Shown here in pieces: positions 3,024 through 56,880 of a DNA stretch of 64,000 nt. The position numbers and the translations under genes are program-made. The stretch covers positions 1,760,001-1,824,000 of the forward strand of contig CAXXTU010000002.1 in the NCBI GenBank assembly GCA_963662655.2. The letters run 5' to 3'. This DNA is from Candidatus Cloacimonadales bacterium (GTDB lineage Bacteria > Cloacimonadota > Cloacimonadia > Cloacimonadales > JAIOQZ01). The notes beneath the pieces were generated by a model. The model made no database searches, had not been told where the DNA came from, and saw nothing but the letters and a program-made list of their open reading frames with translations. Every line of letters begins with the position of its first letter. Positions within the stretch are counted from its first letter, which is position 1.

Positions 3024-3148
3024 AGTGAAGCAGATTCGTTCGATCGCCGTCTGTGCAGGGTGTTTCACAGCCTTGCTACTTTATTCTCTTTGATTTGCAA
3101 GGCTGTGGTATATCCCTGTGCAGACGGCGATCGGGCGAAGATGCCACG
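3024..3148 (+). repeat. Rod-hairpin element family 1, copy A
   Basis: Long imperfect inverted repeat ...AGATTCGTTCGATCGCCGTCTG..CAGGG..CACAGCCTTGC / GCAAGGCTGTG GTATAT CCCTG..CAGACGGCG ATCGGGCGAAGAT GCCACG. Shares motifs with the copies at 10902, 26079 and 56752. Confidence 0.9.
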
Positions 3149-10901: not shown

Positions 10902-11056
10902 GTCGTGAGGAGATTCGTTTGATATCACGCGAAAACGTGGTGTTACACATCGAAAAGCGGATTGCAAATCAAAATGAATACAACGATTATCGAGTGTCCG
11001 CTTGAAGATGTGTTATATCCACGTTGGAGCGGGATATCGGGCGAAGATTCCACGAC
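10902..11056 (+). repeat. Rod-hairpin element family 1, copy B
   Basis: GTCGTG AGG AGATTCGTTTGATATC..AACGTGG TGT TACACATC..AAGCGGA / TCCGCTT..GATGTGT TATAT CCACGTT..GAT ATCGGGCGAAGAT TC CACGAC. Confidence 0.9.
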
Positions 11057-26078: not shown

Positions 26079-26204
26079 GGCGTGAGTAGATTTGTTCGTT
26101 CAGCCGCGTTGACGTGGTGTTCCACACCTTATTCTTGCGCTCGATAGTCTCAAAGGTGTGGTATATCCACGTTAACGCGGCTGATCGGGCGAAGATGCCA
26201 CGCC
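26079..26204 (+). repeat. Rod-hairpin element family 1, copy C
   Basis: GGCGTG AGT AGATTTGTTCG TTCAGCCGCGTTGACGTGG TGT TCCACACCTT / AAGGTGTGG TATAT CCACGTTAACGCGGCTG ATCGGGCGAAGAT GC CACGCC. Confidence 0.9.
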
Positions 26205-40005: not shown

Positions 40006-40812
40006 ATGCATCCAGCGCTACCGAATTTCTTTATCATCGGCGGAATGAACTGCGGCACGACCAGCCTGCTCGAATACCTGAAGCTTCATCCCGAAATATT
40101 TATGTCAACTCCTAAAGAGCCGAGCTTTCCTGGATGGAAAGGGAGTTGCCTGGTACAAAAGCCTGTTTGACGGGTCTTACCCGCTACGTGGCGAATCAAC
40201 GGACAACTACACAAAATTCCCTGGGTACAAGAACGCCCCCGATCGCATCAAGAAAATGGTCCCCGATGCGAAGTTGATCTACCTTGTGAGGAATCCCGTC
40301 GATCGCATCGTTTCGCATTATCGCTGGCAGGTATTTCATGCGGGAGAGCGGAGAAGCTTCAGCGAAGTGATGAAATCCCCCAAGTGGTATGTGATGGTCA
40401 GCAGCTACTATTCGCAACTGGCGCAATACCTCAAACATTTTCGCCTGATCAGATCAAGATCATTCAATTCAACGATCTCGTGAAGAATCGGGTCGAAACC
40501 ATACAGAATGTTTTCCGCTTTCTGGGAGCGGATGATACGTTTGTGCATGAAGGTTTTCACAAGACCCACAACCAATCGAAGGATCGGAAAGTATTGAACT
40601 CTCTTGGACTGGTATTAGCGAGAAACCCGCAATATCAAAGGCTTTTGCGCAACGAGGTGCTGCAGGAACCTCATAAAAATTTATACCAGGCAGTGGAGAA
40701 GCCTTTGGTGACGCCGGCAATTCGGCAACGGCTTCTGGAAAGGCTGTTTCCGGATATCAGCAAGCTCGAAGCTTACACCGGCTGGGACCTCAGAGAGTGG
40801 TACGCCATGTAG
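40006..40812 (+). pseudogene. Sulfotransferase, frameshifted twice (pseudogene or sequencing error)
   Basis: AGGAG RBS; MHPALPNFFIIGGMNCGTTSL...KEPSF; shift near 40130 into WYKSLF..GES..Y..PDAKLIYLVRNPVDR; shift near 40440 into PDQIKI. Confidence 0.8.
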
Positions 40813-40899
40813 CGTCTTCGTCCAACCCGAAATGCAGGTGTCCAGCTTTCAACCCGGGTTGAACGAATCCGCTACACCAATCCATTCGAAGGCGAGTTA

Positions 40900-41479: not shown

Positions 41480-42286
41480 TTAATTTTTATCGTTCAGGAT
41501 GTGGAGGCGCCCCTCTTCGCGGAGTTCCTTGATGTGTTTTTTGAACTCGGGGTAATTGATCCCCCGGATATCCGTATAATACAGGTGCTCGAAATCGAGG
41601 ACCGTGTTCAGTTCCTCTCGATAGCGACGAGCGCTGTCCCGCTCCTGCTGAGGGATTGCGCGAATTGTCAGCAGCTTCTCGGTCTGCCTGTTCTTGTATA
41701 GATGATTTGCGAATGTGCTGCAGCAGCACACGCCGTCTTTGCAAACCAGCGAGCATCTGCCGTCGAAATGGGATTTTATGATCTCACGTGCGCGGTGCAG
41801 GTCGGTTTTCACAACCGCCTCGCTGCATTCGAGTATATCCGCGGTATCCGCGACAGTGAACTCGAGGATAACCCGTAATGTGAATACAACGCGATACTTG
41901 GGAGGCATGCAATTCATAAACATTTGCAAGCACGATTGCTTCACGCGCTCGACAAGATACTGATCCTCCGAATCGCCGGCAGAATTGATGACATGATATA
42001 CCTGATTCTCCGTCATCTGGTGCTCCTCGGCGTAGTTCGTCACGTGGAGCCGCCGTTCTTTCTTCATGGTCTGGCGTGCGGTGTTCACCGTAATCCGGTA
42101 CAACCATGTGAAAGGCGAGCTATCACCACGGAAGTCGTCCCATCCCTTGTACGCGTTCAGAAAGGCGTTTTGCAGAACATCTTCCGCGTCTTCTTTATTG
42201 CCAGTAAACCTGAAGACCATGGTGTAAAGTCGCTGATAGTGCTCTTTGAATAGGTTATCAAATGTTCTTTTTGCGCTCTCGGTCAT
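41480..42286 (-). CDS. ECF sigma factor with a Cys-rich C-terminal extension
   Basis: DAEDVLQ.AF..A, F.G.SS..TWLY.I..N, region 4 HTH; extension GRCSLVCKDGVCCC; AGGAG RBS before MTES. Confidence 0.9.
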   Translation of the reverse strand: MTESAKRTFDNLFKEHYQRLYTMVFRFTGNKEDAEDVLQNAFLNAYKGWDDFRGDSSPFTWLYRITVNTARQTMKKERRLHVTNYAEEHQMTENQVYHVINSAGDSEDQYLVERVKQSCLQMFMNCMPPKYRVVFTLRVILEFTVADTADILECSEAVVKTDLHRAREIIKSHFDGRCSLVCKDGVCCCSTFANHLYKNRQTEKLLTIRAIPQQERDSARRYREELNTVLDFEHLYYTDIRGINYPEFKKHIKELREEGRLHILNDKN

Positions 42287-42392
42287 CCAATCTACTCCTT
42301 GCTGAATTGCGGGCATTTTTTAAGGAAATGCCGATCTGTCAACGGGTTTCTGCTAAACTTCGAACACGTCTGGAAGTCTTGGGGTTACTGCT

Positions 42393-42574
42393 GCCTGGGG
42401 GCGCGGCGTGGGAAGCCCTGCGACCGCAGCAGCATGTTTGAATTGATCAAATTATTCGAACAAACATGCTGCTGCGGTCTTATCGGGGCTTCCCGTAACA
42501 CTGCTGGGCGGTTTCTTATTGGAAACCGCCCAGCAGTGTTACGTGTGCAAGGCACACACGCCGCGCCCCCGGGC
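42393..42574 (+). repeat. Four-way-junction element family 2, copy 1
   Basis: P1 42393-42409/42558-42574; P2 42410-42420/42484-42494 enclosing a perfect 19-bp stem; P3 21-bp perfect 42495-42542; P4 GTGTGC-AAG-GCACAC. Confidence 0.9.
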
Positions 42575-42654: not shown

Positions 42655-43284
42655 ATGTCAGATACATTATACACGATCGAGAATGATCGCTCGCACGAGA
42701 TCAAGATTCAGCGATCGAGGTTTATCTGTTCCATGCGGCACGTAACCAGCCTGGAAGACGCGAAGGCGTTCATCTCGGAGATCGCAGCGCAACACAAGCA
42801 GGCAAATCACAACTGCTGGGCCTACGTCGTGGGCGATAACGGCGAACTCTTTCACGCGTCCGATGCGGGAGAACCTTCCGGCACAGCCGGCAAACCCATG
42901 CTGAATTCCCTGAAGCGGCACAACCTGACGAAGGTATCCGTCGTCGTTACACGCTATTTCGGCGGAATCAAACTGGGCATCCGCGGCTTGATCGAAGCTT
43001 ATACTCAAGCCGTTGAAGAATGCATCCAAACCCACCCGCTCAAGAAAATCTTGTACCTGCGCCATTTCAATATCGTTACAGATTACGGTTTCGCCGAGAC
43101 CCTGAAGCACCGAATCTCCGGTTTGAAAGGCAATGTCGCCGACGCCTCGTACACTGATAAGGTTACACTTACGGTGGATGTGGAAATGGACAATAGCCAG
43201 TCGCTCTTCGATTTCCTTACCGAATTGCAACAAAGCGGAACGCTGAAGTTTCACGAGATGGACCACGCCGAAGTCGAAGAATAA
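42655..43284 (+). CDS. yigZ: IMPACT/YigZ family protein
   Basis: I..SRFI, A.HNCWAY, SDAGEPSGTAG.PML, VVTRYFGGIKLG. Confidence 0.9.
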   Translation: MSDTLYTIENDRSHEIKIQRSRFICSMRHVTSLEDAKAFISEIAAQHKQANHNCWAYVVGDNGELFHASDAGEPSGTAGKPMLNSLKRHNLTKVSVVVTRYFGGIKLGIRGLIEAYTQAVEECIQTHPLKKILYLRHFNIVTDYGFAETLKHRISGLKGNVADASYTDKVTLTVDVEMDNSQSLFDFLTELQQSGTLKFHEMDHAEVEE

Positions 43285-43505
43285 ATAGGAAACGCTATCA
43301 AACACATTTGCCACAGACGAGAAAATCATTGACATGGAAGCCAATCCTCAACATTATTCAATAATATGAAAAATCCGTTGCATATTAATGAATTACGCGC
43401 ATCATTAAGTAATCCAAATATGCTGCGGAACGCGTTTTGCATTATAATATATAGTAGCGGGATGGCATCGAGTCATCGCGCTTACGGGGAATGCAAACAG
43501 GAGAG

Positions 43506-44318
43506 ATGGAGGAAGAATTGTCATACCGGGTAGGATTCTTGCAGTTTAAGCCGGTTCATCATAAGCCCGATGAAAACCTGAGCTACATACAGAAACAGCT
43601 TTCCGGAGCGCCGGAAGCCGATCTGATCGTGTTGCCGGAACTGGCTACAACCGGCTACCTCTTCAAGGATCGAGCAGAGCTCGATGCGCTTGCGGAAGAT
43701 CCCTGCACCGGCTCGACTGCGGTTTTGCTCAAGAAGCTTTCCCAAGAGAAGAATACAAGCTATGTCATTGGCTTTGCGGAGAAAGCGACTAATGGACTCT
43801 ACAACTCGTCCATGCTCGTCAATCCCGACGGCAACATCTACCTCTATCGCAAAATACACCTGTTCGATGATGAGAAAAGAGTGTTCGATTCCGGAGACTT
43901 GGGCTTTCCGGTGTACGAAGCAAAAAACGGCATCAAAGTCGGGCTGATGATCTGCTTCGACTGGATATTCCCCGAATCTGCACGAACCCTCGCCCTCAAA
44001 GGCGCGCAGATACTCTGCCATTCTGTTAACCTGGTTCTACCATGGTGCCAGCAGGCAATGCTGACAAGGACGCTGGAGAACGGCGTTTTCGCCATCACTG
44101 CCAACCGTTTCGGCAGGGAGACTTACGCAGGTAGCGACCTGACATTCACCGGCCAGTCACAGATCGTCACGAACAAAGGGGCGATTGCTTATCGGGCCTC
44201 CGAGCAAACTGATGAGATCGTCATCCGTCAGATCGAGCCGGAAGAGGCTTTGAATAAAATGATTACGGGCAGAAATCATCTGCTCGATGACAGACGTCCA
44301 GATATGTACAAAAAATAG
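43506..44318 (+). CDS. Carbon-nitrogen hydrolase (nitrilase superfamily); start uncertain
   Basis: LPEL..TGY, YRKIHLF, ICFDW.FPE (E-K-C triad). Confidence 0.9.
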   Translation: MEEELSYRVGFLQFKPVHHKPDENLSYIQKQLSGAPEADLIVLPELATTGYLFKDRAELDALAEDPCTGSTAVLLKKLSQEKNTSYVIGFAEKATNGLYNSSMLVNPDGNIYLYRKIHLFDDEKRVFDSGDLGFPVYEAKNGIKVGLMICFDWIFPESARTLALKGAQILCHSVNLVLPWCQQAMLTRTLENGVFAITANRFGRETYAGSDLTFTGQSQIVTNKGAIAYRASEQTDEIVIRQIEPEEALNKMITGRNHLLDDRRPDMYKK

Positions 44319-44362
44319 AAGTAATAAAAACGAACAGTAAAGAATCACAAGGAGAGAAACTC

Positions 44363-47300
44363 ATGCGAAATCTGTTACTTACAATAGTACTGGTTTTGAC
44401 CGTATTTTCGCTGGCAGCCAAATCGGTTGACTTCAGTGCGACCGTCAATAACCCACCGATCGAACGAAGCGGAAATCCGGCTTCGGACGCAAACTTCGTA
44501 ATGGCGGAAACTGGCGAACCCATGCTTCCCTTCGAGAGCTACAACCTGGTTCTTCCTTACGGAACCTCGGTTGACGACATCGTCGTCGAACTCACCGATT
44601 ACACCGTTCTTGGTGGAGAATGGGACATTCCTCATGTCAACGCTCCATCCCGTACCGGCGCCCCCGTTTTCGAAACACCACGCAACGAAGCGATCTACAG
44701 ATCGAATGCCCCTTACCCGGCAAACGATTTCGAACTCGTGACCGTTCAGCGTCTTGCAGGTATCGACATCGCTGTCATCAACGTTTATCCTTACAAGTAT
44801 TCACCGGCATCCAAGGAACTTGGATACTATCGGAATATCGATATCCATATCGATGCCCAGGACGACAACTCGGTCCGCGAAGAACAAAATCGTAAGATTT
44901 GCAAGTCCGAAAGCGTCATGAAGCGCATTAATATCCTTACCGCTAATCCTGAAAACGTTTCAACCTATCCAAACTACAACACACCGAATCACGAGAGAAA
45001 CCTGGTTGATCCTAACGATCCATACCAGTACATTATCGTTTGTGGCGCGGCCTACGTTGACCTCTTCGAGGACTATGCCGATTGGAAGGGCGAACACGGT
45101 GTAACCGCGGGTGTTTTCACAATCGAATCGATCTATACCGAGTACTCCGGTACCCAGCAGGGCAAGCTTCGTGCTTTCATTACCGATGCCTATGAAAACT
45201 GGGCAAACTCTTCAACTCCTCTCGAATACGTGCTTCTCGCCGGCGATGACGAAATCATCCCGATTCGTGGGGTATGGGGTCACGTAAACGAGACCGACAA
45301 CTCAATCCCCTGCGACATGTACTACGGCTGTCTCGACGGTACCTGGAACGCCGATAACGATCAGATTTACGGCGAAACAAGCGATAACGCGGACCTTTAC
45401 GCCGAAGTGCACATCGGACGATATCCTGGCGACACCATGGAAGACTTCGAAAACATGATCTTCAAGACAATCCAGTATGTTGACTTCCCAGCGGCCTCCA
45501 TCGACAAGTGTACGCTCGTCGGTGAGCAGCTTGACGATTACCCGACATACGGTGGCGACTACAAAGATGAAATCGCGAACAGCACAACCATGCTTCCTTC
45601 GTACTATAACGTCTCTACCTTCTATGAAAGGGACGGGACCTTCGATACCGGCGACCTGATCGATCATATCAACGATGATCAAGCTGGCTTGATGAACCAC
45701 ATGGGACACTGCGACTACAATTATGCGATGAGCCTCACACCTGCTCAAATCCAGAATCTTCATAACACCGAATATCCATTCGTCTACTCTCAAGGCTGCT
45801 ACGCGCTCGCGTTCGATCAGCAAACCAGTGGCGACGTGGAATGTATCGGCGAAAACATGCTTTTCAACGATGCCGGCTGGTTCGCTTTCTGCGGTAACAC
45901 CCGTTACGGCTGGTATGCAAACGGAAGCACCAACGGTGCATCACAGCAGTTCGACAAGAAGTACTTCCAGTCACTGTTCTACAACGAAATTCGCGAAATG
46001 TCCGCGGCCCTCGCAAACTCGAAAGAGCAGCTTGTGGCTTACGTCAATTCCGGTAGCGGAACCTATCGCTGGGTCTACTACGAAATGGTTCTCTTCGGCG
46101 ATCCGGAAGTGGCAATCTACAACGGCGAAGGCAACATGCCCGACCTCGACATCTTCTATCAGCAAGTGCTTGAATATGGCGGAGACGGCGACGGCATCCT
46201 CAATCCCGGCGAGCAAGCCCAGGTTGTCATCATGTTGATCAACAACCCGGGAACCGGCGTTGCAGCAAATTCATCCGCAACCCTGGTTACCGATAACGAA
46301 TATGTCGAAATCATCGACGGTCATCGTGATTTCGGTAGCCTCGCTGCCGGCGCAACAGCTGACAACTACAGCTCACCGTTTATCATCCAGCTTTCGGAAG
46401 ACTGCCCGGTTGGCGAAATCAACTTCACCGTTGAACTCAGCGCCAACGCAGGTTCCGAAACTTACTTCGTGAAGCAATACGCGCTCACGGCGACCAGTCT
46501 GCTTTACTACCCGAACTTCCCATTCACAACGCAGACTTCCGTATACTCGTCACCGATCGTGGCGGACGTCGATGCCGACGGTAACGAAGAAATCGTTTCC
46601 GCCGACGCATCTGGCAATATCTATGCCCTCAGATCAAACGGCAACAACATCAGCGGATTCCCTGTGGCAACCGGTTCCAATATCAGAACCAACGTCGCTA
46701 TGGGTAACCTCGACGCGGACGAGCAGCTTGAGATTGCCTCCATCTCGTTCGATCACATCCTTACGATCGTGGACAACGATGGAACCATCATGTATCAGAA
46801 TTCAGATTACCAGGTGTTCATGAATTCTCCGACCATCGCCGACATCGCCGGTGACGCAAGAGAAGAAGTGATCTTCGGTAACATGAACCATTACCTTTAC
46901 GCTCTCGATGCTACCGGCACTCCGGTGACCAACTTCCCGGTCGAGCTACCGGACAGGATCCTTGGCGGCGCGGCAGTCGGCGATGTTGACAGCGACGGAC
47001 AGAAGGAAATCGTTGTGGGATGTTTCAACGGCAACCTTTACATCGTTGAATCCGACGGAAGCTACCGCAGCGTGACTCTCAGCGGTCAATTCTCGACCAC
47101 TCCGCTGATTTTCGGAAGCGGCAAGATCGCTATCGGCAGCAGCGACAGTCATGTCTACATTATCGAATCGGATGCCGTCGTGCAGGATATTACTCTCGAC
47201 GCGAAAGTATCGAAAGGGATCATCGCTGCCGATTTCGACGGTGACGACGATTACGAGCTTGCATTCTCGCTCGAGAATGGCACAACATACATCATGGAAG

Positions 47301-47977
47301 ACGACGGTACGGTCTTCAACGGCTGGCCTATTGACCTCGGCGCGGGTGTCGATGGAACCCCGGTTGCCGGAGATATTGACGGCGACGGAATGATCGACCT
47401 GCTCGTTCTGAACTCGGAAGGTACGATCCAGGGCAAGAACATCAGCGGCGAAGACCTTCAAAACTTCCCGATCGGCTACGGGATCCCGACCCAGAGCTCT
47501 GTAAGCATCTGTAATGTCGATCGCAACGCTTCCGCTGAACTTGCTGCCGGAACCAACACCGGCGTTTCTCTGTGGGATATCAAGTTGAACTGCGGCGATC
47601 TGAACGTGTGGCCGTACCTTTACGGAGACATCGGTCGTACATCCTGTACCCAGACCATCGTAGCGAACGACGACGATACCGTTCCCGAAGTGATTACTTC
47701 GCTGACGGGCAACTATCCGAATCCGTTCAATCCCGAAACCACAATCAAATTCTCGATCTCAGATCAAGACAGCAAGCAGCCTGTAAGTCTCAAGATTTAC
47801 AACATCAAGGGCCAGCTTGTGAAGACGATCGTGAACGAAAAACTCGCTACGGGCGAGCATTTCCTGACCTGGCAGGGTAACAGCGATACCGGTAAATCGG
47901 TTGCATCCGGTATTTACTTCTATCGCCTCACCACATCGTCATCCAGCCAGAACCGCAAAATGCTCCTGCTGAAATAA
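44363..47977 (+). CDS. Secreted C25 (gingipain-like) peptidase with FG-GAP repeats and a FlgD/T9SS-like C-terminal domain
   Basis: Signal peptide; GEPMLP propeptide; YVLLAGD, IGRYP, NHMGH, SQGC, LFGDP; DVD.DG..EI repeats; NYPNPFNPET...SGIYFY. Confidence 0.9.
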   Translation: MRNLLLTIVLVLTVFSLAAKSVDFSATVNNPPIERSGNPASDANFVMAETGEPMLPFESYNLVLPYGTSVDDIVVELTDYTVLGGEWDIPHVNAPSRTGAPVFETPRNEAIYRSNAPYPANDFELVTVQRLAGIDIAVINVYPYKYSPASKELGYYRNIDIHIDAQDDNSVREEQNRKICKSESVMKRINILTANPENVSTYPNYNTPNHERNLVDPNDPYQYIIVCGAAYVDLFEDYADWKGEHGVTAGVFTIESIYTEYSGTQQGKLRAFITDAYENWANSSTPLEYVLLAGDDEIIPIRGVWGHVNETDNSIPCDMYYGCLDGTWNADNDQIYGETSDNADLYAEVHIGRYPGDTMEDFENMIFKTIQYVDFPAASIDKCTLVGEQLDDYPTYGGDYKDEIANSTTMLPSYYNVSTFYERDGTFDTGDLIDHINDDQAGLMNHMGHCDYNYAMSLTPAQIQNLHNTEYPFVYSQGCYALAFDQQTSGDVECIGENMLFNDAGWFAFCGNTRYGWYANGSTNGASQQFDKKYFQSLFYNEIREMSAALANSKEQLVAYVNSGSGTYRWVYYEMVLFGDPEVAIYNGEGNMPDLDIFYQQVLEYGGDGDGILNPGEQAQVVIMLINNPGTGVAANSSATLVTDNEYVEIIDGHRDFGSLAAGATADNYSSPFIIQLSEDCPVGEINFTVELSANAGSETYFVKQYALTATSLLYYPNFPFTTQTSVYSSPIVADVDADGNEEIVSADASGNIYALRSNGNNISGFPVATGSNIRTNVAMGNLDADEQLEIASISFDHILTIVDNDGTIMYQNSDYQVFMNSPTIADIAGDAREEVIFGNMNHYLYALDATGTPVTNFPVELPDRILGGAAVGDVDSDGQKEIVVGCFNGNLYIVESDGSYRSVTLSGQFSTTPLIFGSGKIAIGSSDSHVYIIESDAVVQDITLDAKVSKGIIAADFDGDDDYELAFSLENGTTYIMEDDGTVFNGWPIDLGAGVDGTPVAGDIDGDGMIDLLVLNSEGTIQGKNISGEDLQNFPIGYGIPTQSSVSICNVDRNASAELAAGTNTGVSLWDIKLNCGDLNVWPYLYGDIGRTSCTQTIVANDDDTVPEVITSLTGNYPNPFNPETTIKFSISDQDSKQPVSLKIYNIKGQLVKTIVNEKLATGEHFLTWQGNSDTGKSVASGIYFYRLTTSSSSQNRKMLLLK

Positions 47978-47994
47978 TTAGCTTTCAAGCAAAC

Positions 47995-48031
47995 GAAAAA
48001 CGCCCAATCGTCGATTGGGCGTTTTTCTTTT
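47995..48031 (+). terminator. Bidirectional Rho-independent terminator
   Basis: GAAAAACGCCCAATCG-T-CGATTGGGCGTTTTTC followed by TTTT. Confidence 0.9.
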
Positions 48032-48059: not shown

Positions 48060-48223
48060 CCACCAGCGCGGCGGGGCGGCGTTGGAAGCCTGGCATGTGC
48101 AAGTCATTATCTGATTCGGGAACTTTGCGCTGAATGGAGTCTTGAGAACGCTGGTCGACCGGCTTCCTGATCGATGTACATCGATCGTGCGCGAAGCGCA
48201 CACGCCGCCCCGCCGCGCGGTGG
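48060..48223 (+). repeat. Four-way-junction element family 2, copy 2
   Basis: P1 GCGCGGCGGGGCGGCGT/ACGCCGCCCCGCCGCGC; P2 GGAAGCC/GGCTTCC; P3 GATCGATGTACATCGATC; P4 GTGCGC-GAA-GCGCAC. Confidence 0.88.
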
Positions 48224-48284: not shown

Positions 48285-49262
48285 CTAAAGGATCGCCTGG
48301 TTCATCTTCTCGATGAACGCGATGGTTTGAACGAAATCCTCGGGCAGTGGAGCCTTCAAGAGAAGTCTTTCGCCGGTGATCGGATGTTCAAAGGCGAGCG
48401 AGGACGAATGAAGCGCCTGACGCTGCATGTGATTCGCAACGAGGTATTTCATGCGTTTCTGGAGATTCAGCGGCAACATACTCAGCTCGCGTTTGAGCGT
48501 CGAGTAAGTCCGATCCCCCAGAACAGGGTAGCCGATGTGTGAAAGGTGTACTCTTATCTGATGGGTTCTTCCGGTCAGGATGCAGACGTCCAGCAAACCA
48601 AAGTATTCGAGATCCTTCTCGATACGGAAGATGCTGATCGCATCCTTTCCGCCTTCGACAACACTCATCTTCTTGCGATCCGAACCGCTCCTGGCGATTC
48701 CCGTACGGATTTCGTTGTCCAGGTCCCGAGGTAAACCCACCGTCAACGCCAGGTAATGCTTCTCGATCTTCCGCTCCTGAAAAATGCGCGATAGCAGCGA
48801 ATGCGTCCTGTCGTCCCTGGCCACGAGAATGATCCCACTGGTGTCCTTGTCCAGCCGGTGAACGATTCCCGGGCGGGTCGGGTCCGACCCGGTAGAAAGC
48901 GTTCCCGAAAAGTGGTGCATCAGAGCGTTAACGAGCGTGCCGTTCCAGTTACCCGGTGCGGGATGAACCGTCATACCAACCGGCTTATTCACGGCGATCA
49001 AATAGGGGTCTTCGTAGACGATGTCGAGAGGAATCACTTCCGCCTTAACCTTGCTCGATTCCGGCTCGGGAATGCTCAACTCGATCTCGTCTCCCTCTTC
49101 AACCAGATAGCTCTTTTTCACGGGCTGCCCGTTGACGAGCGCTTCGCCATTCTTGATCAATCGATCGATAAACGAACGGGAATAGAGTTCGTCGAGCTGT
49201 AAGTCACTCAGGTACTTGTCGATACGAGGCCTTGAAGAAATATCGCAGAGAATCTTCATCAT
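48285..49262 (-). CDS. rluD: RluA/RluD family 23S rRNA pseudouridine synthase
   Basis: S4 domain, VNKP.G..VHP, GIVHRLDKDTSG, TGRTHQIRVH, QALH. Confidence 0.9.
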   Translation of the reverse strand: MMKILCDISSRPRIDKYLSDLQLDELYSRSFIDRLIKNGEALVNGQPVKKSYLVEEGDEIELSIPEPESSKVKAEVIPLDIVYEDPYLIAVNKPVGMTVHPAPGNWNGTLVNALMHHFSGTLSTGSDPTRPGIVHRLDKDTSGIILVARDDRTHSLLSRIFQERKIEKHYLALTVGLPRDLDNEIRTGIARSGSDRKKMSVVEGGKDAISIFRIEKDLEYFGLLDVCILTGRTHQIRVHLSHIGYPVLGDRTYSTLKRELSMLPLNLQKRMKYLVANHMQRQALHSSSLAFEHPITGERLLLKAPLPEDFVQTIAFIEKMNQAIL

Positions 49263-50071
49263 TCGTCGGAATCTTTACCTTTCTCGCCTTTCTTGCGATC
49301 GATATTGAACACGCCCAGAACAACACCGATAGGCATTCCACCCACATCGCGTACCATGCTGCTCTTGAGCGTGATATGTCGCTTCAACGATGGTATGAAA
49401 TACTGCTGTGAGGGCTGAACGCTTCGATTCTGCAAGATCGGGAGCGCATACTTGACGATGCTGTTGTTCACCTCCGGCTGGAAGCTCGAATCGAAGAGAT
49501 TGAGGTTCTCCGCAAGAAGCGGGAACACATCATTCAGGTTGTCGCTGAGGAACTTGATGTCTCCATCGATATCGATGACGATGAATCCGTTCTCAGACAG
49601 CTTCAAAATGCTCAGAATGCGGTTCATGTGCTCGATGATCTTCTCTTTCTTCGCTTGATCGAAATGAACGACCGAATTGAGCATCTTCTTGACCTGAAGG
49701 ATCAATTCCATCACGTCTTCATCGTTGCGACCGCTCAGCTCGGTTTCGTCGATATCGAGATTGTAGTTACCTCGCGTAATCTCCTTTAGTAGCTTGTTGA
49801 CATCCGTGAACCCACGATGGAGAAACACGGGAACGTAAAAGAAGAAGATAATCGCGACCAGAAATTGCAAGAACAGGAATATCCACAAAATATTGCCGAT
49901 GTCCTTCTTCATCAGTTCCGCGCGCTCCCTTAGCATGGTCGCATCGTCCATCGATCCCATCGCGCCCTTGTGAGTCGCCATGGTGAACCAGATAACAACA
50001 CCCTGCGCTGCCGTCAGCAGAAGCAACAGAATGATGAAATAGCGTATCTTGCGAGTAATGAAGTATTTCAT
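49259..50071 (-). CDS. Membrane protein with 2 TM, HAMP-like and PAS-like regions, no kinase domain
   Basis: Two hydrophobic helices; ITRGNY...DEDV.EL; ENGFIVID.DG.I.F; DVGG.PIGVV C-terminus. Confidence 0.6.
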   Translation of the reverse strand: MKYFITRKIRYFIILLLLLTAAQGVVIWFTMATHKGAMGSMDDATMLRERAELMKKDIGNILWIFLFLQFLVAIIFFFYVPVFLHRGFTDVNKLLKEITRGNYNLDIDETELSGRNDEDVMELILQVKKMLNSVVHFDQAKKEKIIEHMNRILSILKLSENGFIVIDIDGDIKFLSDNLNDVFPLLAENLNLFDSSFQPEVNNSIVKYALPILQNRSVQPSQQYFIPSLKRHITLKSSMVRDVGGMPIGVVLGVFNIDRKKGEKGKDSDE

Positions 50072-50075
50072 AGGA

Positions 50076-50774
50076 TCAATCCTGCATCGTTTCCTTGATG
50101 ATTTCGTTGATTCTCGGCTCGGGCCCCAGAAGGACAAGCTGATCGCCTTCCTTTATCACGTCGTTTGCTCCGGGAAGATCGTTGATACGCTTCTCGAGCT
50201 TGTTCTCGCCATCCTCCGAAACCGTGAGATGATCGTACTTGATCGCGACAATGTGAACGCCCTTGCTCGCTGGCAAGGCAAGCTCCTGAAGCGTCTTGCC
50301 CACGTAACTGTCCGGCACGGAGATTTCCACTATCGAGTGCCCGGTGGCGAGGTTGTAGTAGCGTATCACATTGCGAGAGAGCAGAGAATGCGCCAGTTCG
50401 AGCCCAATCTGCTCCTCGGGAAAAACAATGTGCTTCACGCCGATGAGTTCGAGAATCCTCGCGTGGAGCTTGCTATCGACTTTCGCGTGTATGTTTGCCG
50501 CACCCAGCTTGGTGAGAATAACGCTGGTGAGAACGCTGACCTCGATATTGTTACCGATCGCCAGGATCACGGCGTCCATGTCGTCCACACCCACCTGCTT
50601 AAGCGCTTGTTCGTCCGTGCTGTCCATGCAAATGGCAGCCGTAACGCTGTTCTTTATCTCGTCGATCAATTTCTGATCCGAATCGATGACCGTTACCTCC
50701 GCGCCGTTCTTGAACAGCGTCGACGACACGGTCATACCGAATTTACCCATTCCAATAACCAGGAACTTAGCCAT
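50076..50774 (-). CDS. ktrA: KtrA/TrkA RCK-domain K+ uptake subunit
   Basis: VIGMGKFG, IG..IE.S, VFPE..IG, VGKTLQEL. Confidence 0.9.
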   Translation of the reverse strand: MAKFLVIGMGKFGMTVSSTLFKNGAEVTVIDSDQKLIDEIKNSVTAAICMDSTDEQALKQVGVDDMDAVILAIGNNIEVSVLTSVILTKLGAANIHAKVDSKLHARILELIGVKHIVFPEEQIGLELAHSLLSRNVIRYYNLATGHSIVEISVPDSYVGKTLQELALPASKGVHIVAIKYDHLTVSEDGENKLEKRINDLPGANDVIKEGDQLVLLGPEPRINEIIKETMQD

Positions 50775-50786
50775 ATAGACTCCTCA

Positions 50787-52718
50787 TTATCCTATTGAAA
50801 TTTTCTCGACTGTATATGCAAGCGTTTTTTTCGTTTTGGATTGAGTCAGAGCGAAGATCAATGTGAGAGGCCCCACCCTCCCGAGGTACATAAGCAAGAT
50901 GATGATGATCTTTCCGCCAATCGTGAGATCCGCAGTAATGCCCATGGAAAGCCCCACCGTGCCGAAGGCGGAAAAGGCTTCGAAAACAACCTTCCGGAAC
51001 GATTTCTGTTCGCTCCACTGATATTGCGTATCCACTTTTTCATACTGGGCCAAGCGCTGCGGTTCACGCACAATCACCGAATCGGAGATTGCGGCAACCG
51101 AAAGACTTTCCGCAGGAACCATCTCGGCAGGAATCGCCGTTTCCCAAGTCTTTCGTGTTTCGCTTACAACAATCGATTTCGGTGGCGTTGTCTCGAAAAA
51201 AAGGAGCAGGAAGATCATGATCGAGATAAATCCGATCGAAGTGGCGATGAGGGCCAGCACCCGTTTGAGCATCTCGTCCGAGATACGCCGTTTGAATATG
51301 GAAACCCCTTCCCCGCCTTTGATAATGGCAAGAACGGATAGAATAATGATTGCGAAGGTTGTCGTTTTCACGCCGCCACCGGTAGATCCAGGGGACGCAC
51401 CGATGAACATGAGCAGGTTGGTGATGAACACCGAGGAATTACTAAGCTGCGCGTTATCGATTGTGTTGAACCCGGCTGTTCTGGTCGTAACCGACTGGAA
51501 CATCGAGGCAAGTAAGCGCTCCAGGAACGAGAAATCTCGCATGGTGTGATTGTATTCCGATATGAAAAACGCCACAAAGCCGATCAGAATCAAGCAGACT
51601 GTCATAAGCAGAACAAGCTTGGTATGAAGGGTCAATCTCCCCGGATTGTATCGTTGGACTACGTTTCTTCGTAAATCGACCAGTACCGAGAATCCTATAC
51701 CGCCCACAATAATGAGGAACATGGTAATCAGGTTCACCCCAAGCGAACTCTTGAACTGGACCAGGCTGTCGCTGAACAGGCTGAATCCCGCGTTGCAGAA
51801 TGCGGAGATCGAGTGGAATACCGCGTAGTATCCGGCACTGCCGGTGACCAATGGATGTCTGCGGAACATGAAGTAGTAAACCGCTGCCCCGCCCATCTCG
51901 AAGAGCATTGTCACCAGGAAGATATCCTTGATCAGCGTGAGCATATCCAGCCGGTTCGATTCCCCCATCACATCTTTCATCACGTTTTCGCTGCGTTGGG
52001 TGAGTTTTTCACCGAGTAAAATTGCAAAGGCAGTCGATATCGTCATAATTCCCAGGCCGCCGATCTGGATCAGAATCAGGATGATGATCTGCCCGAAGGA
52101 TGTGAAGTATGAACCGGTGTCCTGCACGATGAGGCCGGTTACACAGGTGGCGGATGTCGCTGTGAAAAGTGCGTCGAGGTACGGCGTATCGCTATGGTGG
52201 TTGCTGGATACCGCCCACGGCAACGAAAGCAGGAACGAACCCAGGATAATCACAACGAAGAAGCTGAGCAGGAAAAACACCGGCGGATTCGCGGAAAGTT
52301 TACGGAATATTTTCTCGTTGTAACTAACGTATGCCAGTCCTTTCACGATCATATACGTTTGCCGGCCGATCAGGTAGAGGCTGAAGAACTGGTAGCCTTT
52401 GAATTTCGTAACGATCAACGCCGCAACGATCATCAGATCGATCAGCATCGAGCGAATACGTATCGGCGAGAATCCAATCCCGATCAGCCTTACAGCCATG
52501 AAGCCCACGAAATAGAGCATGGAAGAAACGGAAATGACTCGCGAGAAGAGGAAGAAGGTCTTGTCGTCCGAGAAGTGATAGCTCAGTAGCAGCATCGCCA
52601 GGCTTACAAGCGCAAAGCCATGCAACATCCACTGCATGGTGGATGACAATCTGCCGAAGAAATTGATGAAGCTGCGATATAGCGATTCCGCAGTCTTTGT
52701 CGCTTTGTTTTTACTCAT
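50787..52718 (-). CDS. ktrB: KtrB/TrkH K+ uptake membrane subunit with an N-terminal extension
   Basis: SATCVTGL, SAFCNAGF, TRTAGF, GSTGGGVK, SAFGTVGLS, MYLGRVGPL. Confidence 0.9.
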   Translation of the reverse strand: MSKNKATKTAESLYRSFINFFGRLSSTMQWMLHGFALVSLAMLLLSYHFSDDKTFFLFSRVISVSSMLYFVGFMAVRLIGIGFSPIRIRSMLIDLMIVAALIVTKFKGYQFFSLYLIGRQTYMIVKGLAYVSYNEKIFRKLSANPPVFFLLSFFVVIILGSFLLSLPWAVSSNHHSDTPYLDALFTATSATCVTGLIVQDTGSYFTSFGQIIILILIQIGGLGIMTISTAFAILLGEKLTQRSENVMKDVMGESNRLDMLTLIKDIFLVTMLFEMGGAAVYYFMFRRHPLVTGSAGYYAVFHSISAFCNAGFSLFSDSLVQFKSSLGVNLITMFLIIVGGIGFSVLVDLRRNVVQRYNPGRLTLHTKLVLLMTVCLILIGFVAFFISEYNHTMRDFSFLERLLASMFQSVTTRTAGFNTIDNAQLSNSSVFITNLLMFIGASPGSTGGGVKTTTFAIIILSVLAIIKGGEGVSIFKRRISDEMLKRVLALIATSIGFISIMIFLLLFFETTPPKSIVVSETRKTWETAIPAEMVPAESLSVAAISDSVIVREPQRLAQYEKVDTQYQWSEQKSFRKVVFEAFSAFGTVGLSMGITADLTIGGKIIIILLMYLGRVGPLTLIFALTQSKTKKTLAYTVEKISIG

Positions 52719-53363
52719 TCAGGATAAGTTGATGTGACGTTCGTTTAGAACCCTCACGACCTCTCTGTGAATTACATCGGGTTTCTGGTCGGCGTCGATG
52801 GTTCGTAGTTTGCCCTGGTTGCGGAAATACTCGATCGCCAGATCGGTTTGTTTATGGAAATCATTTATTCGCTTCTGAATCGCCTCTTCGTTGTCGTCGC
52901 TACGCATGACGAGTTTTCCGCCACAGTGATCGCAGATTCCTTCCTGCTTCGGTTTGCGGAAAAGCACGTTGAAATCGGAGTGGCAGTTGACACATATACG
53001 CCGAGCAAGGAGCCGTTCCATCGATTTCTCGTCCGAAAGCACGAACAGAATCGCCAGATCGATGGGATAGTGCTCGTTCAGGAATTCGGCTTGCGCCATA
53101 TTGCGCGGAAAACCGTCGAGAACAAACCCCTTCGGGCATGCAGCCATTTTCTTATCGATAACATCAAAAACGATTTCATCCGGCACCAGCAGTCCGTTTT
53201 CGATGAAGTACTTCACTTTCATGCCGGTTTCCGTATCGTGCTTGATATGCCAGCGAAACTCGTTTCCAACGTTGATATGGAAAAGCTCGAAGCGCTCTTG
53301 CATCAACTCGGCCTGGGTTCCCTTACCACTTCCCTGGATACCCATAAATACCAGATCGACCAT
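52719..53363 (-). CDS. adk: Adenylate kinase (Zn-lid type)
   Basis: GIQGSGKGTQA, LDGFPRN, CVNC...CDHCG lid, RSDD. Confidence 0.93.
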   Translation of the reverse strand: MVDLVFMGIQGSGKGTQAELMQERFELFHINVGNEFRWHIKHDTETGMKVKYFIENGLLVPDEIVFDVIDKKMAACPKGFVLDGFPRNMAQAEFLNEHYPIDLAILFVLSDEKSMERLLARRICVNCHSDFNVLFRKPKQEGICDHCGGKLVMRSDDNEEAIQKRINDFHKQTDLAIEYFRNQGKLRTIDADQKPDVIHREVVRVLNERHINLS

Positions 53364-53555
53364 GGATCCTCCCTTGAAAGATTCACATGAACTTTCTCAA
53401 AGTGTAATTTGATGACATTCGGATAATAAGTCAAGTTTTCTGAGCGAATATACAGAATATATCCCTGAGCGACAATGTTTCCACTGCTTGAATATACTTG
53501 TTTTCCCTCCAACTTCTCAAGCCAGTTCGAAGCCCCGGAGAGGGCGCGGATTCCC

Positions 53556-53671
53556 GCGCCGGGGGGCGGCGCCGCAAGCCCGTATGGGCTTGCGGCCTGC
53601 TTTTGAAATGCCTTCAGCAAGGCATTTCAAAAGCAGGTTAGTGCGCTACGCGCACGCGCCGCCCCCGGCGC
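53556..53671 (+). repeat. Four-way-junction element family 2, copy 3
   Basis: P1 GCGCCGGGGGGCGGCGC/GCGCCGCCCCCGGCGC; P2 CGCAAGCCC/GGGCTTGCG; P3 19-bp perfect 53596-53637; P4 GTGCGC-TAC-GCGCAC. Confidence 0.88.
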
Positions 53672-53790
53672 TGAGCTGGGCACCAATCTTCCTATTCCCT
53701 TACTCCGCGAGCAGAGAAAAGATAAGAAAAAAACTGCTTGCCATGAGCACTGTTTGCCGAAATACTATCCTCAAGCACACGGAGGTAAGA

Positions 53791-54213
53791 ATGGAAAGTC
53801 AAATCATCGAGTCGACCCACATCCTGCGGTTGGACCCGGGGGAAGAGATCGTGACGTCTCTCATTGACTATTGCGAGGAGCAGGGAATCCAAAGCGGACT
53901 CGTTACGGCAATCGGCGCGGTTAACGATGTGACGATCGGGCTCTTCGATCCAGATACAAAGGAGTACGCTTCGGAGCGGAAGAAGGGTAACTTCGAGATC
54001 GTCGCCCTCACGGGCAATATCGCGACCAAGGACGGCGAGGTCTACGCTCATCTGCATATCGGTTTTGGCGACGACCAACATGCTATGTACGGCGGTCACC
54101 TGAATCAAGCTTTCGTCAGCGCAACCTGCGAAATCTACCTTCTGGCATTGAAGGACAAGGTTGAGCGTTTCTACAGCAGTGAAATCGGTTTGAATCTGCT
54201 AAAACTCAAATAA
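53791..54213 (+). CDS. PPC/DUF296 domain protein
   Basis: GGAGGT RBS; RLDPGEEI, AIGA, FEI..LTGNI, HLH, GGHL, TCE. Confidence 0.88.
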   Translation: MESQIIESTHILRLDPGEEIVTSLIDYCEEQGIQSGLVTAIGAVNDVTIGLFDPDTKEYASERKKGNFEIVALTGNIATKDGEVYAHLHIGFGDDQHAMYGGHLNQAFVSATCEIYLLALKDKVERFYSSEIGLNLLKLK

Positions 54214-54426: not shown

Positions 54427-56744
54427 TTGATCCGCATTGCCGTACGCTCGCTGATCGAATTCGTTCTGCGTTCGGGCGATTACCGTTGCGAATTCACATC
54501 GCCTGCGCGTCCTCTGGAAGGTGCACGTGGACATCGTCGTGTCCAGAAATCGAGACCGGAACATTACCGTAGCGAAGTGGCGTTCAAGCACACGTTCAGC
54601 GTCGAAGACCTCGAGATTCAGCTTCAAGGTCGCATCGACGGCATTTTCGACGAGGAAAGCGGTCCCGTCATTGACGAGATTAAAACAACCTACGGCGAGC
54701 TTACCCACGACGGCCACGACATGCACTGGGCGCAGGCGAAATTCTACGCCTGGATCATCCTGCTCGAGCAGAATCTCGACCGGATCGACGTCCAGCTAAC
54801 CTACCTGCAACTCGAATCGAACGAAATCCGGGAAATACGCAAAACGTTCTCCGCCGGGGAACTACAGGATTTCTACCGACCTGTCCTCGAGAGCTATGCT
54901 GAGTGGGCTCGCCTACGCTCCCATTGGGAAAACCTCAGAGAGGAATCGGCGATGGCGATCGAGTTCCCGTTCGGTGATTACCGGAAAGGTCAGCGCGAGC
55001 TGGCGGTAGCGGTATGGAAAGCGATCGATGCGAAGAACAAGCTGTACATTCAAGCCCCGACCGGCATCGGAAAAACCATCGGCACCATCTTCCCCGCCGT
55101 AAAAGCTTCCTCATCGTTCGCAAAGCTGTTCTACCTCACGGCCAAAACAACCGGCAGAGCTGTCGCCGAGAAGGCGTTCGCTCTTCTGAGAGATAACGGT
55201 CTGCGCTACAAAACCCTTACCCTTACAGCCAAAGAGAAAATCTGCTTCATGCCCGGCGCGGCTTGCATACCGGAAGAATGCCCTTTCACCGTCGGTTACT
55301 ACGACCGCCTGCGGGGCGCGGTTGAGGACGCTCATCTCTTCGACAACCTGGATCGCCAAACCGTCGAAGAGCTTGCGAAGAAGCATCGAATCTGCCCGTT
55401 CGAGTTCTCGCTGGAGCTCTCCCTGTGGGCGGACGCGGTCATCTGCGACTACAACTACGTGTTCGATCCGAGAGTATACCTCCGAAGATTCTTTCAAGAC
55501 ACCGCAGAGCCATACGTGTTTCTGGTGGACGAGGCCCACAACCTGCCTGATCGTGCGCGAAGCATGTTCTCCGCCTCACTCTCCAAGAAAGACACATTAC
55601 AGCTCTCGCGCACCTGCAAGGATTATGCCCCGCAGTTAACAACTCCTCTCAAGAACCTGAACAAAATCCTGATCGATAAACGAAAGCAGGCCGAAGCAAT
55701 CAAGCAAGAAGCCTTCACGGGAGAATGAAGCCCCAGCGGAGATCGTCACCCTCGTGAAGAAATACATCGCAGAGGCGGAGAAATGGTTGGCAATAAATCC
55801 GAAAGTCGGATGGCAAGCAGGAGATACTCGACTTCTATTTCCACTGCCTCGCGTTCGTGAGGACATCCGAGTTCTTCGATGAGCGCTACGTCACGCTTTA
55901 CGAGAAGCAGCGCGACGAGCTGATCGTCAACCTGTTCTGCATGGACCCGTCGTACCTGCTCGGACTCGCCTTCGAAAAGAGCGTCTCGTCGATCGTATTC
56001 TCCGCCACGCTGACTCCGCTTGATTACTACATGGACATCCTCGCTGCCAAGCCGGAAGACGGCTCCCTGCTCCTCGAGTCGCCCTTCCCGGGAAGAAATG
56101 TGGCTGTTTTAATTGCGAACAGAATCCCGACCACCTATAAGCAACGGGAAAACTCGGCGATGGAAGTCGCCCAAATGATCCATGCCGCCGTGAACAGCCG
56201 GAAAGGCAATTACATCGTCTACTTCCCATCCTATCGCTATATGCGGCAGGTGCTGGATTTCATCAACCTCCCGGAAACCGAGATCATCGTCCAGGAATCG
56301 GGAACCACCGAAGAAGAGCGAGATGTTTTCCTCGCCAAATTCTCCAGCGCGAACGAAAAGACGCACGTTGGATTCTGCGTTATGGGTGGCGTGTTTGGAG
56401 AAGGGATCGACCTGGTCGGAGACCGCCTTATCGGCGCAATAATCGTCGGCGTCGGATTGCCGCAAATCAATCCGAGGCTCGACTTGATTCGCGACTACTA
56501 CAACCATCTCGAAGGCTCGGGATTTCAATACGCTTACATGTTCCCCGGCATGGGGAGAGTCCTGCAGGCCGCCGGCAGGGTCATCCGCACCCCGGAAGAC
56601 AAAGGCATGATCTTTCTCATCGACGAACGCTTCGCCCACCAACGCTACCTGCAACTCTTCCCGGAACTTTGGCGAAACTGGCGTCCCATTGGAAAACCGG
56701 AAGAAGCGGAAAGACTACTGAATGGATTCTGGGAAAGAGTCTGA
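54427..56744 (+). CDS. PD-(D/E)XK nuclease fused to an Fe-S XPD/DinG helicase, split by two +1 frameshifts (~55720, ~55803)
   Basis: GRIDG..EIKT, APTGIGKT, four Fe-S Cys, DEAHNL, FSATL, YFPSY, EGID, QAAGRVIR. The intervening frame reads ENEAPAEIVTLVKK..., then KQEILDFYF. Confidence 0.85.
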
Positions 56745-56751
56745 AACAAGA

Positions 56752-56880
56752 GGACGCGAGCAGATTGGTTCGATCCTCTCTTCAGCGTGGTGCTTCACAG
56801 CGTAGTGTTCAATTTCCAATTCCTTACGGAGCTGTGGTATATCCACGGTGAAGAGAGGATCGGGCGAAGATGCCGCGTCC
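56752..56880 (+). repeat. Rod-hairpin element family 1, copy D
   Basis: GGACGCG AGC AGATTGGTTCGATCCTCTCTTCA GCGTGG..CACAGC / GCTGTG GTATAT CCACG G TGAAGAGAGG ATCGGGCGAAGAT GC CGCGTCC. Confidence 0.9.

Follow-up and report, generated by a model that had tools for sequence, protein, structure and literature searches.

The window, a stretch of 64,000 nucleotides (positions 1760001-1824000 of contig C2 in the assembly under study, G000), contains three copies of a repeat with a predicted four-way fold, in which the stem P1 closes the hairpins P2, P3 and P4 (Table 1). They lie among an ECF sigma factor gene, two blocks of genes and a PCC-domain gene. The start listed for the last of these, a TTG at 53488, would make the gene run through copy 3. 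Two of the copies are placed between divergent genes and one between convergent genes, as an earlier note on this DNA had described. All three divide blocks that have other neighbours in the congeners G001, G002 and G003. The block between copies 1 and 2 is a single conserved block in the congeners, but has different neighbours there, and both ends of the block between copies 2 and 3 adjoin other genes in them. The three congeners mostly agree on these block neighbours, although G001 and G003, at 75-77% identity, are no closer to one another than to G000. Further to the right, a gene for a PD-(D/E)XK and DinG-like helicase (54427-56744) is split by frame changes at two places, near 55720 and near 55800, whereas in G001 it forms one frame. 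The place falls in a gap of the short-read contigs, so the split may be an assembly error.

Table 1. Repeat copies and neighbouring features in the window
Feature	Position	Strand	Details
Rod-shaped second repeat, four copies	3030-3144, 10909-11050, 26086-26198, 56760-56873	+	
Rod-shaped second repeat, fifth copy	40812-40872	-	
ECF sigma factor gene, left of copy 1	41480-42316	-	Elsewhere, with other neighbours, in three congeners
Copy 1, closed four-way junction	42393-42574	+	P1 42393-42410/42557-42574; P2 42411-42493 (long); P3 42494-42543 (22 bp); P4 42544-42556 (AAG loop); one-base slide of the junction possible
Gene block from copy 1 to copy 2 (UPF0029/YigZ, C-N hydrolase, C25 peptidase)	42655-47977	+	
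Terminator-like hairpin with A/T tracts	47991-48031	.	Beside copy 2, outside the element
Copy 2	48066-48218	+	P1 48066-48082/48202-48218; P2 48084-48167 (long, decayed); P3 48169-48186 (short, 18 nt); P4 48187-48201, capped by GCGAAGC; 1+1 bases unpaired at the junction; outer pairs, starting at about 48060, imperfect
Gene block from copy 2 to copy 3 (pseudouridine synthase ... TrkH ... adenylate kinase)	48285-53363	-	
Copy 3	53556-53671	+	P1 53560-53572/53656-53668, outer pairs to 53556/53671; P2 53573-53594 (short); P3 53595-53638; P4 53641-53655, inverted loop TAC (opposite strand: GTA)
Weakly conserved 3' tail of the four-way family, at copy 3	53672-53690	+	Starts with unpaired TG
PCC-domain gene, right of copy 3	53791-54213	+	ATG read from sequence

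Folded as DNA, copy 1 reached -91.9 kcal/mol (z = -19.6), and none of 200 shuffled sequences did as well. The computed structure agrees with the closed four-way junction drawn earlier for this copy, whose register (P2 42410-42494, P3 42495-42542, P4 42543-42557) is a one-base branch-migration isomer of ours. A perfect junction had also been claimed for copies 2 and 3. Both keep the arm order P1-P2-P3-P4, but each has two unpaired junction bases, which in copy 3 precede P4. Contigs from a public run contained copies 1 and 3 with their flanks and zero differences. The assembly was probably made from this same run, in which case the match tests the assembly only and is not independent. Among the matches listed, no joint in these contigs skipped a whole copy.

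A dispersed repeat family with a four-armed fold

Descriptor searches of G000 gave 80 rows, and 76 complete copies remained when four opposite-strand duplicates were subtracted, 73 on contig C2 and three on contig C1. All of them are intergenic, 100-200 nt long and without genes, and have the P1-P2-P3-P4 order that the earlier note had proposed to search for in the genome and its relatives. They occur in all gene contexts (14 co-directional, 20 opposite, 23 convergent and 19 divergent). These numbers bear out the claim of a dispersed, structure-defined, non-coding element, and also the view that the copies are not terminators. Profile searches of G000 added two truncated copies, both right halves, and revealed no pool of decayed copies.

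The exact P4-P1' pattern had 44 matches in G000, one in each of the three congeners and none in 37 further genomes of the order, and this did not change when one mismatch was allowed. One copy was present within the 2.4 Mb of G001 examined. The expansion of the family is specific to the G000 lineage. In a collection of genome contigs the pattern had nine matches, two of them real (both congener records); in metagenome contigs it had 12 matches, none with the fold, and in viral contigs it had none. Being strict, the pattern would not detect families that have diverged. Phages and plasmids gave short chance-level matches and nothing more. Two Polyangiales contigs that matched the pattern by chance had long nested palindromic repeats in common, with a fold unlike that of the four-way family. 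A four-way-junction DNA repeat family was not described in the literature searched, which included few subscription journals and whose supplements may contain repeat catalogues. Within this scope, the family is real and undescribed; its mechanism we infer.

A site upstream of queD carries a copy in G001 and G003, with different, still paired arms, and none in G000 and G002. At this site and at three sites of conserved gene order, the sequences were too diverged for placing the edges of the element, and no clean empty site could be aligned. G002 has a copy on contig C10 with 91% identity to the copy at C1:115433 of G000. Horizontal transfer of this copy was rejected: core genes of the 38-kb contig (fliP/Q/R, motA/B, kdsA and pyrE, named by eye) were not found in G000, and there are two fliP genes in G002. 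Contig C10 is probably a misplaced piece of the G000 organism or of a near relative; if so, at least 38 kb are missing from the G000 assembly.

In all 76 copies, the predicted fold has three hairpins within P1. The junction has no unpaired base in 24 copies, one in 11, two in 24, three in six and four in 11. Sequence is conserved in P1, P4 and the base of P2, with compensatory changes, the pairing of P1 and P4 being partly built into the search. A weak foot motif was also seen: P1' is followed by an unpaired TG in 44 of 76 copies, and P1 is preceded by CCC or ACC in 34 of 76. The 3' tail fades across about 25 nt. P1 measures 11-24 bp. The lengths of P3 and of the P2 tip had been called unrelated, but P2 and P3 each fall into two length classes: P2 is either short, with 16-32 nt in 33 copies, or long, with 64-95 nt in 43, and P3 has 35-60 nt in 67 copies and 17-28 nt in nine. 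No copy has both arms short (0/75). For the sequences of P3 and the P2 tip, the same word was too strong, as copies 2 and 3 have similar sister copies. The sister of copy 2, at C2:3139661, is 84% identical to it with an identical P3, and that of copy 3, at C2:725596, has 78% identity.

The P4 loops (n = 76) were GAA in 27 copies, GGA in 19, GCA in six and GTA in three, which makes a GCGNAGC mini-hairpin cap in 55. According to the part of PMC13037366 used here, the melting points of GCGNAGC hairpins in DNA rank A > G > C > T, and an RNA counterpart has a far lower stability. The loop frequencies in P4 have the same rank order. Inverted TNC loops made up five of the 17 non-GNA triloops in P4, an over-representation (P = 0.004). 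Among 19 short-P2 triloops, six were GNA and seven TNC (P = 2e-8), and both orientations were equally common. At positions 2-16 of P3 in 66 long arms, 919 of 990 cells were Watson-Crick pairs, 14 were G·T and 14 were A·C. The mini-hairpin caps, the inverted loops and the equality of G·T and A·C in P3 point to a repeat that acts as DNA and not as RNA. Of the junction of ssDNA or RNA recognised by an unknown protein, as inferred in the earlier note, the DNA level stood, RNA is disfavoured and the protein was not found. That note had also stated that the copies are always in the same orientation, which is due to chance in the window: among the 73 copies on C2, the leading strand is faced by 37, so there is no bias. 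Its proposed check against Rfam 15 gave no match at the gathering score in the 64-kb window, and of nine sub-threshold hits six were generic miRNA hairpins.

Sister copies reach identities of 84-91%, and the similarity ends a few bases from the foot of P1. In the pair with 91% identity, it stops at -4/+2 of the core. Flanks more than 15 nt out were no more alike than those of random pairs (P = 0.52 and 0.11; 14 close pairs among 2775). The sole near-identical pair is the product of an ISL3 rearrangement, and one of its members was excluded from later counts. The histories of P2 and P3 were uncorrelated (rho = 0.05, 528 pairs), and four pairs of copies had a related P2 and an unrelated P3. Judged from these comparisons, the arms turn over independently. 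P3 stays paired even where the pairing in the interior of a long P2 is fully lost. We surveyed whether P2 and P3 arms were captured from elsewhere in the genome and obtained 11 short matches at E < 0.05, which is the chance level. Cognate outer flanks paired no better than mismatched ones (-7.6 versus -7.7 kcal/mol). An autonomous copy with a gene inside P2 was rejected, because the one distant P1/P4 pair was a complete copy plus a truncated one.

The arms had been suggested to be regenerated by template switching. Inverted loops and preserved arm pairing are known signatures of this process in yeast, in the portion of the work cited here (PMC8604942). The inverted loops and the upkeep of P3 are no more than consistent with the suggestion, and selection on the fold would give a similar pattern.

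Copies at gene-order breakpoints

The strongest clue, which was missed in the first reading, is the link between the copies and rearrangement breakpoints. Gene order was compared with 2.4 Mb (62%) of G001, against which 50 of the 76 copies were testable and 26 were untestable. Breaks were found at 47 of the 50 copies. Comparatively, 199 of 326 element-free gaps of at least 200 nt (61%) were at breaks (P = 8e-7). The copies also exceeded terminator-bearing gaps, 68 of 94 of which (72%) were at breaks (P = 0.002). Further controls were plain gaps (230/420) and gaps with another REP-like repeat (11/21). Where both flanks were mapped, 20 of 22 copies were at breaks, versus 28 of 51 terminator gaps, 72 of 238 plain gaps and 6 of 16 gaps with the REP-like repeat. 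Among divergent gaps only, the counts were 9/9 for copies and 76/135 for plain gaps. Contig C10 of G002 took no part in building these counts. It has three breaks relative to G001, each at an element (one four-way copy and two rods).

Five arbitrary 16-kb pieces of G003 showed about 12 long-range jumps relative to G000 and two relative to G001, with one repeat hit omitted in each comparison. Therefore, G000 is the shuffled lineage. Its GC skew is clean despite leading or lagging sense being retained in only 151 of 271 chains, which suggests that the shuffling is old.

A four-way or rod copy was carried by 26 of 77 clean junctions, compared with 10 of 197 gaps inside conserved blocks. On the ancestral partner ends, copies were not enriched: they were present on 12 of 50, versus 68 of 318 for element-free breaks. 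Taken as pairs, 10 had copies on both ends, 38 on one and 46 on none, compared with about 9, 40 and 45 expected by independence. The lack of enrichment on partner ends argues against reciprocal recombination between copies, and would fit one-ended joining at insertion, insertion into existing breaks, or breakage at resident copies. In the part of PMC11708052 cited here, an insertion sequence was seen at a joint that had no target duplication, which was explained by insertion into breaks already present.

Relation to known repeats and possible mechanism

The earlier note had proposed looking for a linked HUH/RAYT or recombinase gene and for target duplications, and both searches were negative. 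In the G000 assembly, from which at least 38 kb seem to be missing, there was no Y1_Tnp match, no Y1-like protein by tblastn and motif scan, and no IS110 or TnpB. The best match to the integron integrase model TIGR02249 had 67 bits in G000 against a cut-off of 265, and none of four genomes, controls included, had a match over the cut-off. A search for Y2/IS91 gave no signal in the control genomes, so it has no bearing on G000. Twelve Y1 loci of family members that we inspected were flanked by other repeats or by none of the four-way family, and the RAYT genes of the congeners were flanked by repeats other than this family. G000 has a single reverse transcriptase gene, Abi-like by eye, with an internal stop, about 10 kb from the nearest copy; for the retron msr-msd reading, no linked retron reverse transcriptase was found in G000. 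The Abi-like gene lies in an AT-rich insert (C2, about 981050-982600). Shorter neighbouring genes without a match in the G001 stretches looked by eye like ordinary cell genes.

Target duplications of 7 nt or more were seen at two of 76 copies, compared with 8.8% in mismatched flanks, although old copies could have lost them. REP foot tetranucleotides were rare within 14 nt of the core (n = 76): GTAG was found in none, GTGG in one, CGTC in six, TGTC in one and CCTC in six. The attC core RYYYAAC/GTTRRRY was present in none of the 76 copies. By eye, P1 differed from the ends of the resident ISL3 (13 copies) and IS3-like (eight full copies) elements.

MITEs of the RUP, BOX, ERIC or Correia type are non-autonomous, 100-200 nt long and intergenic, with terminal inverted repeats. 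The four-way family resembles them in being non-autonomous, in length and in position, with P1 as the terminal inverted repeat. However, it has no target duplication, its P1 is unlike the resident IS ends, and its inner arms are conserved in shape only. REPs and REPINs, as far as the cited parts of PMC3116915, PMC6006769 and PMC3733652 describe them, come closer to it in the way they work: these multi-copy DNA elements are short and non-coding, lie outside genes and have inverted ends that are conserved around a variable interior that stays paired, no target duplication is seen, and the enzyme acts in trans. A 'clover' fold has even been proposed as the transposed form of REPINs, in the legend of Fig. 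S11 of PMC3116915. In contrast to the doublet of REP hairpins that makes a REPIN in these sources, the four-way family has one stem closing three different hairpins (76/76). It has no GTAG tag, CGTC in only the six copies counted above and no RAYT in the assembly, and it is strongly tied to long-range breakpoints. On the best reading, the family is most like REPINs in lifestyle, yet is not a REP/REPIN member, because neither the tag, the doublet nor the RAYT was found.

We favour, with middling confidence, a non-autonomous mobile element whose copies mark rearrangement joints and which an enzyme in trans moved in the form of folded single-stranded DNA. The recognised form would be the folded single strand, read through P1, the base of P2, P4 and the unpaired foot TG. 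What is copied would be the cloverleaf closed by P1, and its insertion would leave no target duplication, as with strand transfer by HUH (Y1) enzymes. Insertion may have been one-ended or may have patched breaks, so that only one of the new joints would carry a copy; on one side, the enzyme would probably join the element to DNA from far away. Once the element is inserted, template switching, selection or both might keep its short-looped arms paired in place while their sequence drifts. The enzyme may have been lost, may lie in unassembled DNA, or may come from a family outside those searched.

Several observations stand against the mobile-element reading. No mobilising enzyme was found in G000. 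Apart from the pair made by ISL3 there is no near-identical pair, and thus no sign of current movement, and the clean GC skew makes the shuffling old. A selfish family that is dying out might leave more truncated copies than the two found. Of the 77 clean junctions, 51 lack four-way and rod copies alike, and no clean empty site could be aligned. The copies show no replichore bias, whereas a strand bias is usual for IS200/IS605.

An alternative, which we regard as unlikely, differs from the favoured reading mainly in the order of events. Copies would have been inserted first and then acted as fragile sites: RuvC or SbcCD would cut the junction or the long P3 hairpin on exposed single-stranded DNA, and the ends would be repaired to unrelated loci. 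With host enzymes cutting, the element would need no joining activity of its own. The same breakpoint enrichment fits, and RuvC is present in G000, but it is also present in the congeners. Perfect hairpins of at least 14 bp are frequent in the copies, which hold 42 of the 64 on C2, compared with five in 2.4 Mb of G001. The truncated copy at C2:3617690, which retains only the 3' arm of P3, looks as if it had been broken at the P3 tip, but the missing 5' arm is nowhere else in the assembly. Resolution of the junction should also give two-arm products closed by P1, and none was found in G000. The spread of the copies is left unexplained. A bolder and somewhat more doubtful reading is a new kind of genome-shuffling element, in which a gene-less single-stranded mimic of the Holliday junction, with arms of measured length and no transposase of its own, spread via host junction-processing or break-repair enzymes and scrambled the gene order of the lineage.

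It is improbable that the copies are DNA sites useful to the host, kept by selection at operon boundaries as nucleoid-protein, primase/primosome or similar sites, with breaks falling there merely because such boundaries tolerate rearrangement. The intact state of old copies, the quantised arm lengths and the absence of copies with both arms short would be expected, and so would the filling of the queD site in G001 and G003 with different yet paired arms. However, that copy is absent in G000 and G002, and the congeners live with about one copy each. The enrichment at breaks is also above that of terminator-bearing gaps and is seen in divergent gaps. GCGNAGC mini-hairpins occur at the G4/ssiA priming sites of phages and at N4 promoters, in the part of PMC13037366 cited here, with the same cap as in P4 and the same preference for A > G > C > T. 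In G000, the caps belong to 76 dispersed chromosomal copies in a four-way fold, with no phage or plasmid context.

We consider it quite improbable that the copies are attC-like sites, at which an integrase recombines the folded forms and shuffles gene blocks. As in attC, on the portion of PMC5027507 cited, structure is conserved over sequence, which is free to vary, an unpaired base stands at a fixed place in the foot, and the copies lie at the ends of gene blocks. The four pairs with related P2 and unrelated P3 would also fit arms being exchanged or replaced independently. But reciprocal recombination predicts copies on both partner ends, whereas the partner ends are unenriched and the end pairs are near independence. 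The four-way family further differs from attC in its four arms, in the absence of an AAC core, an array and, in G000 as in the controls, an integron integrase over the cut-off, and in its mixed orientation.

Least probable by our estimate is a structured RNA family (a small RNA, a leader or a 3' stabilising element): the fold is strong as RNA as well, on one strand the closing pair of P3 is G·T in 22 of 66 long arms (a position defined by the fold, so that A·C could not be counted there) and the P4 caps are strand-biased (54 GNA versus 5 TNC), but G·T equals A·C inside P3, the triloop caps are of the DNA type and are also found inverted, the copies show no orientation relative to neighbouring genes, and Rfam gave no match at the gathering score, with mostly generic miRNA hairpins as weak hits.

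The small repeats known from bacteria consist of one hairpin or a pair of hairpins, and a tag or an enzyme can usually be recognised for them. In the four-way family, a four-armed shape and the lengths of the arms persist while most of the sequence turns over. No enzyme can be recognised for it, and it stands at the joints of a reshuffling that is specific to the lineage and spans the genome. If this link is causal, it would offer a testable explanation of how bacteria lose gene order through folded single-stranded DNA, and would point to an undescribed junction-reading recombinase or to an unusual use of host enzymes.

Other repeats and mobile elements

By a loose descriptor, the rod-shaped repeat, which has fixed mismatch patches, occurs about 130 times in G000 and 25 times in 2.4 Mb of G001. 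Its orientation is biased relative to replication, with 36 of 125 copies on the leading sense, and it too is found at breakpoints (52/61). Rods are often closed by GGCGT/ACGCC, with which P1 of the four-way family also ends. A flank motif common to the two families was rejected, as it was weak and not strand-specific.

A third, REP-like repeat with GNA caps (C2 885122-885292; 51 pattern hits genome-wide) lies beside a broken GIY-YIG gene and is not enriched at breakpoints (the 11 of 21 gaps given above). The GIY-YIG gene was dismissed as an enzyme candidate for the four-way family because it adjoins this different repeat. A tandem array of about 45-nt units, each with two small hairpins, also lies beside the REP-like repeat (C2 772330-772600).

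Both xerC/xerD-like genes of G000 directly precede an element, a four-way copy for the one at C2 1848001-1848710 and a rod for the one at C2 1153450-1154146. In G001 and G003, the first xer gene precedes a RAYT-like gene with its own repeats. The elements that follow the two xer genes, and two copies next to places where congeners have RAYT, were set aside as within chance or post hoc. G000 also contains several near-identical Mu-like prophage segments (named by eye) and two families of insertion sequences, likewise assigned by eye. The IS3-like family includes the full copy at C2 475673-477005. The ISL3 family is recent and has AT-rich targets, and one of its copies is at C2 2159256-2160603. 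Two ISL3 copies were inserted just 5' of four-way copies, with one linked duplication of a copy.
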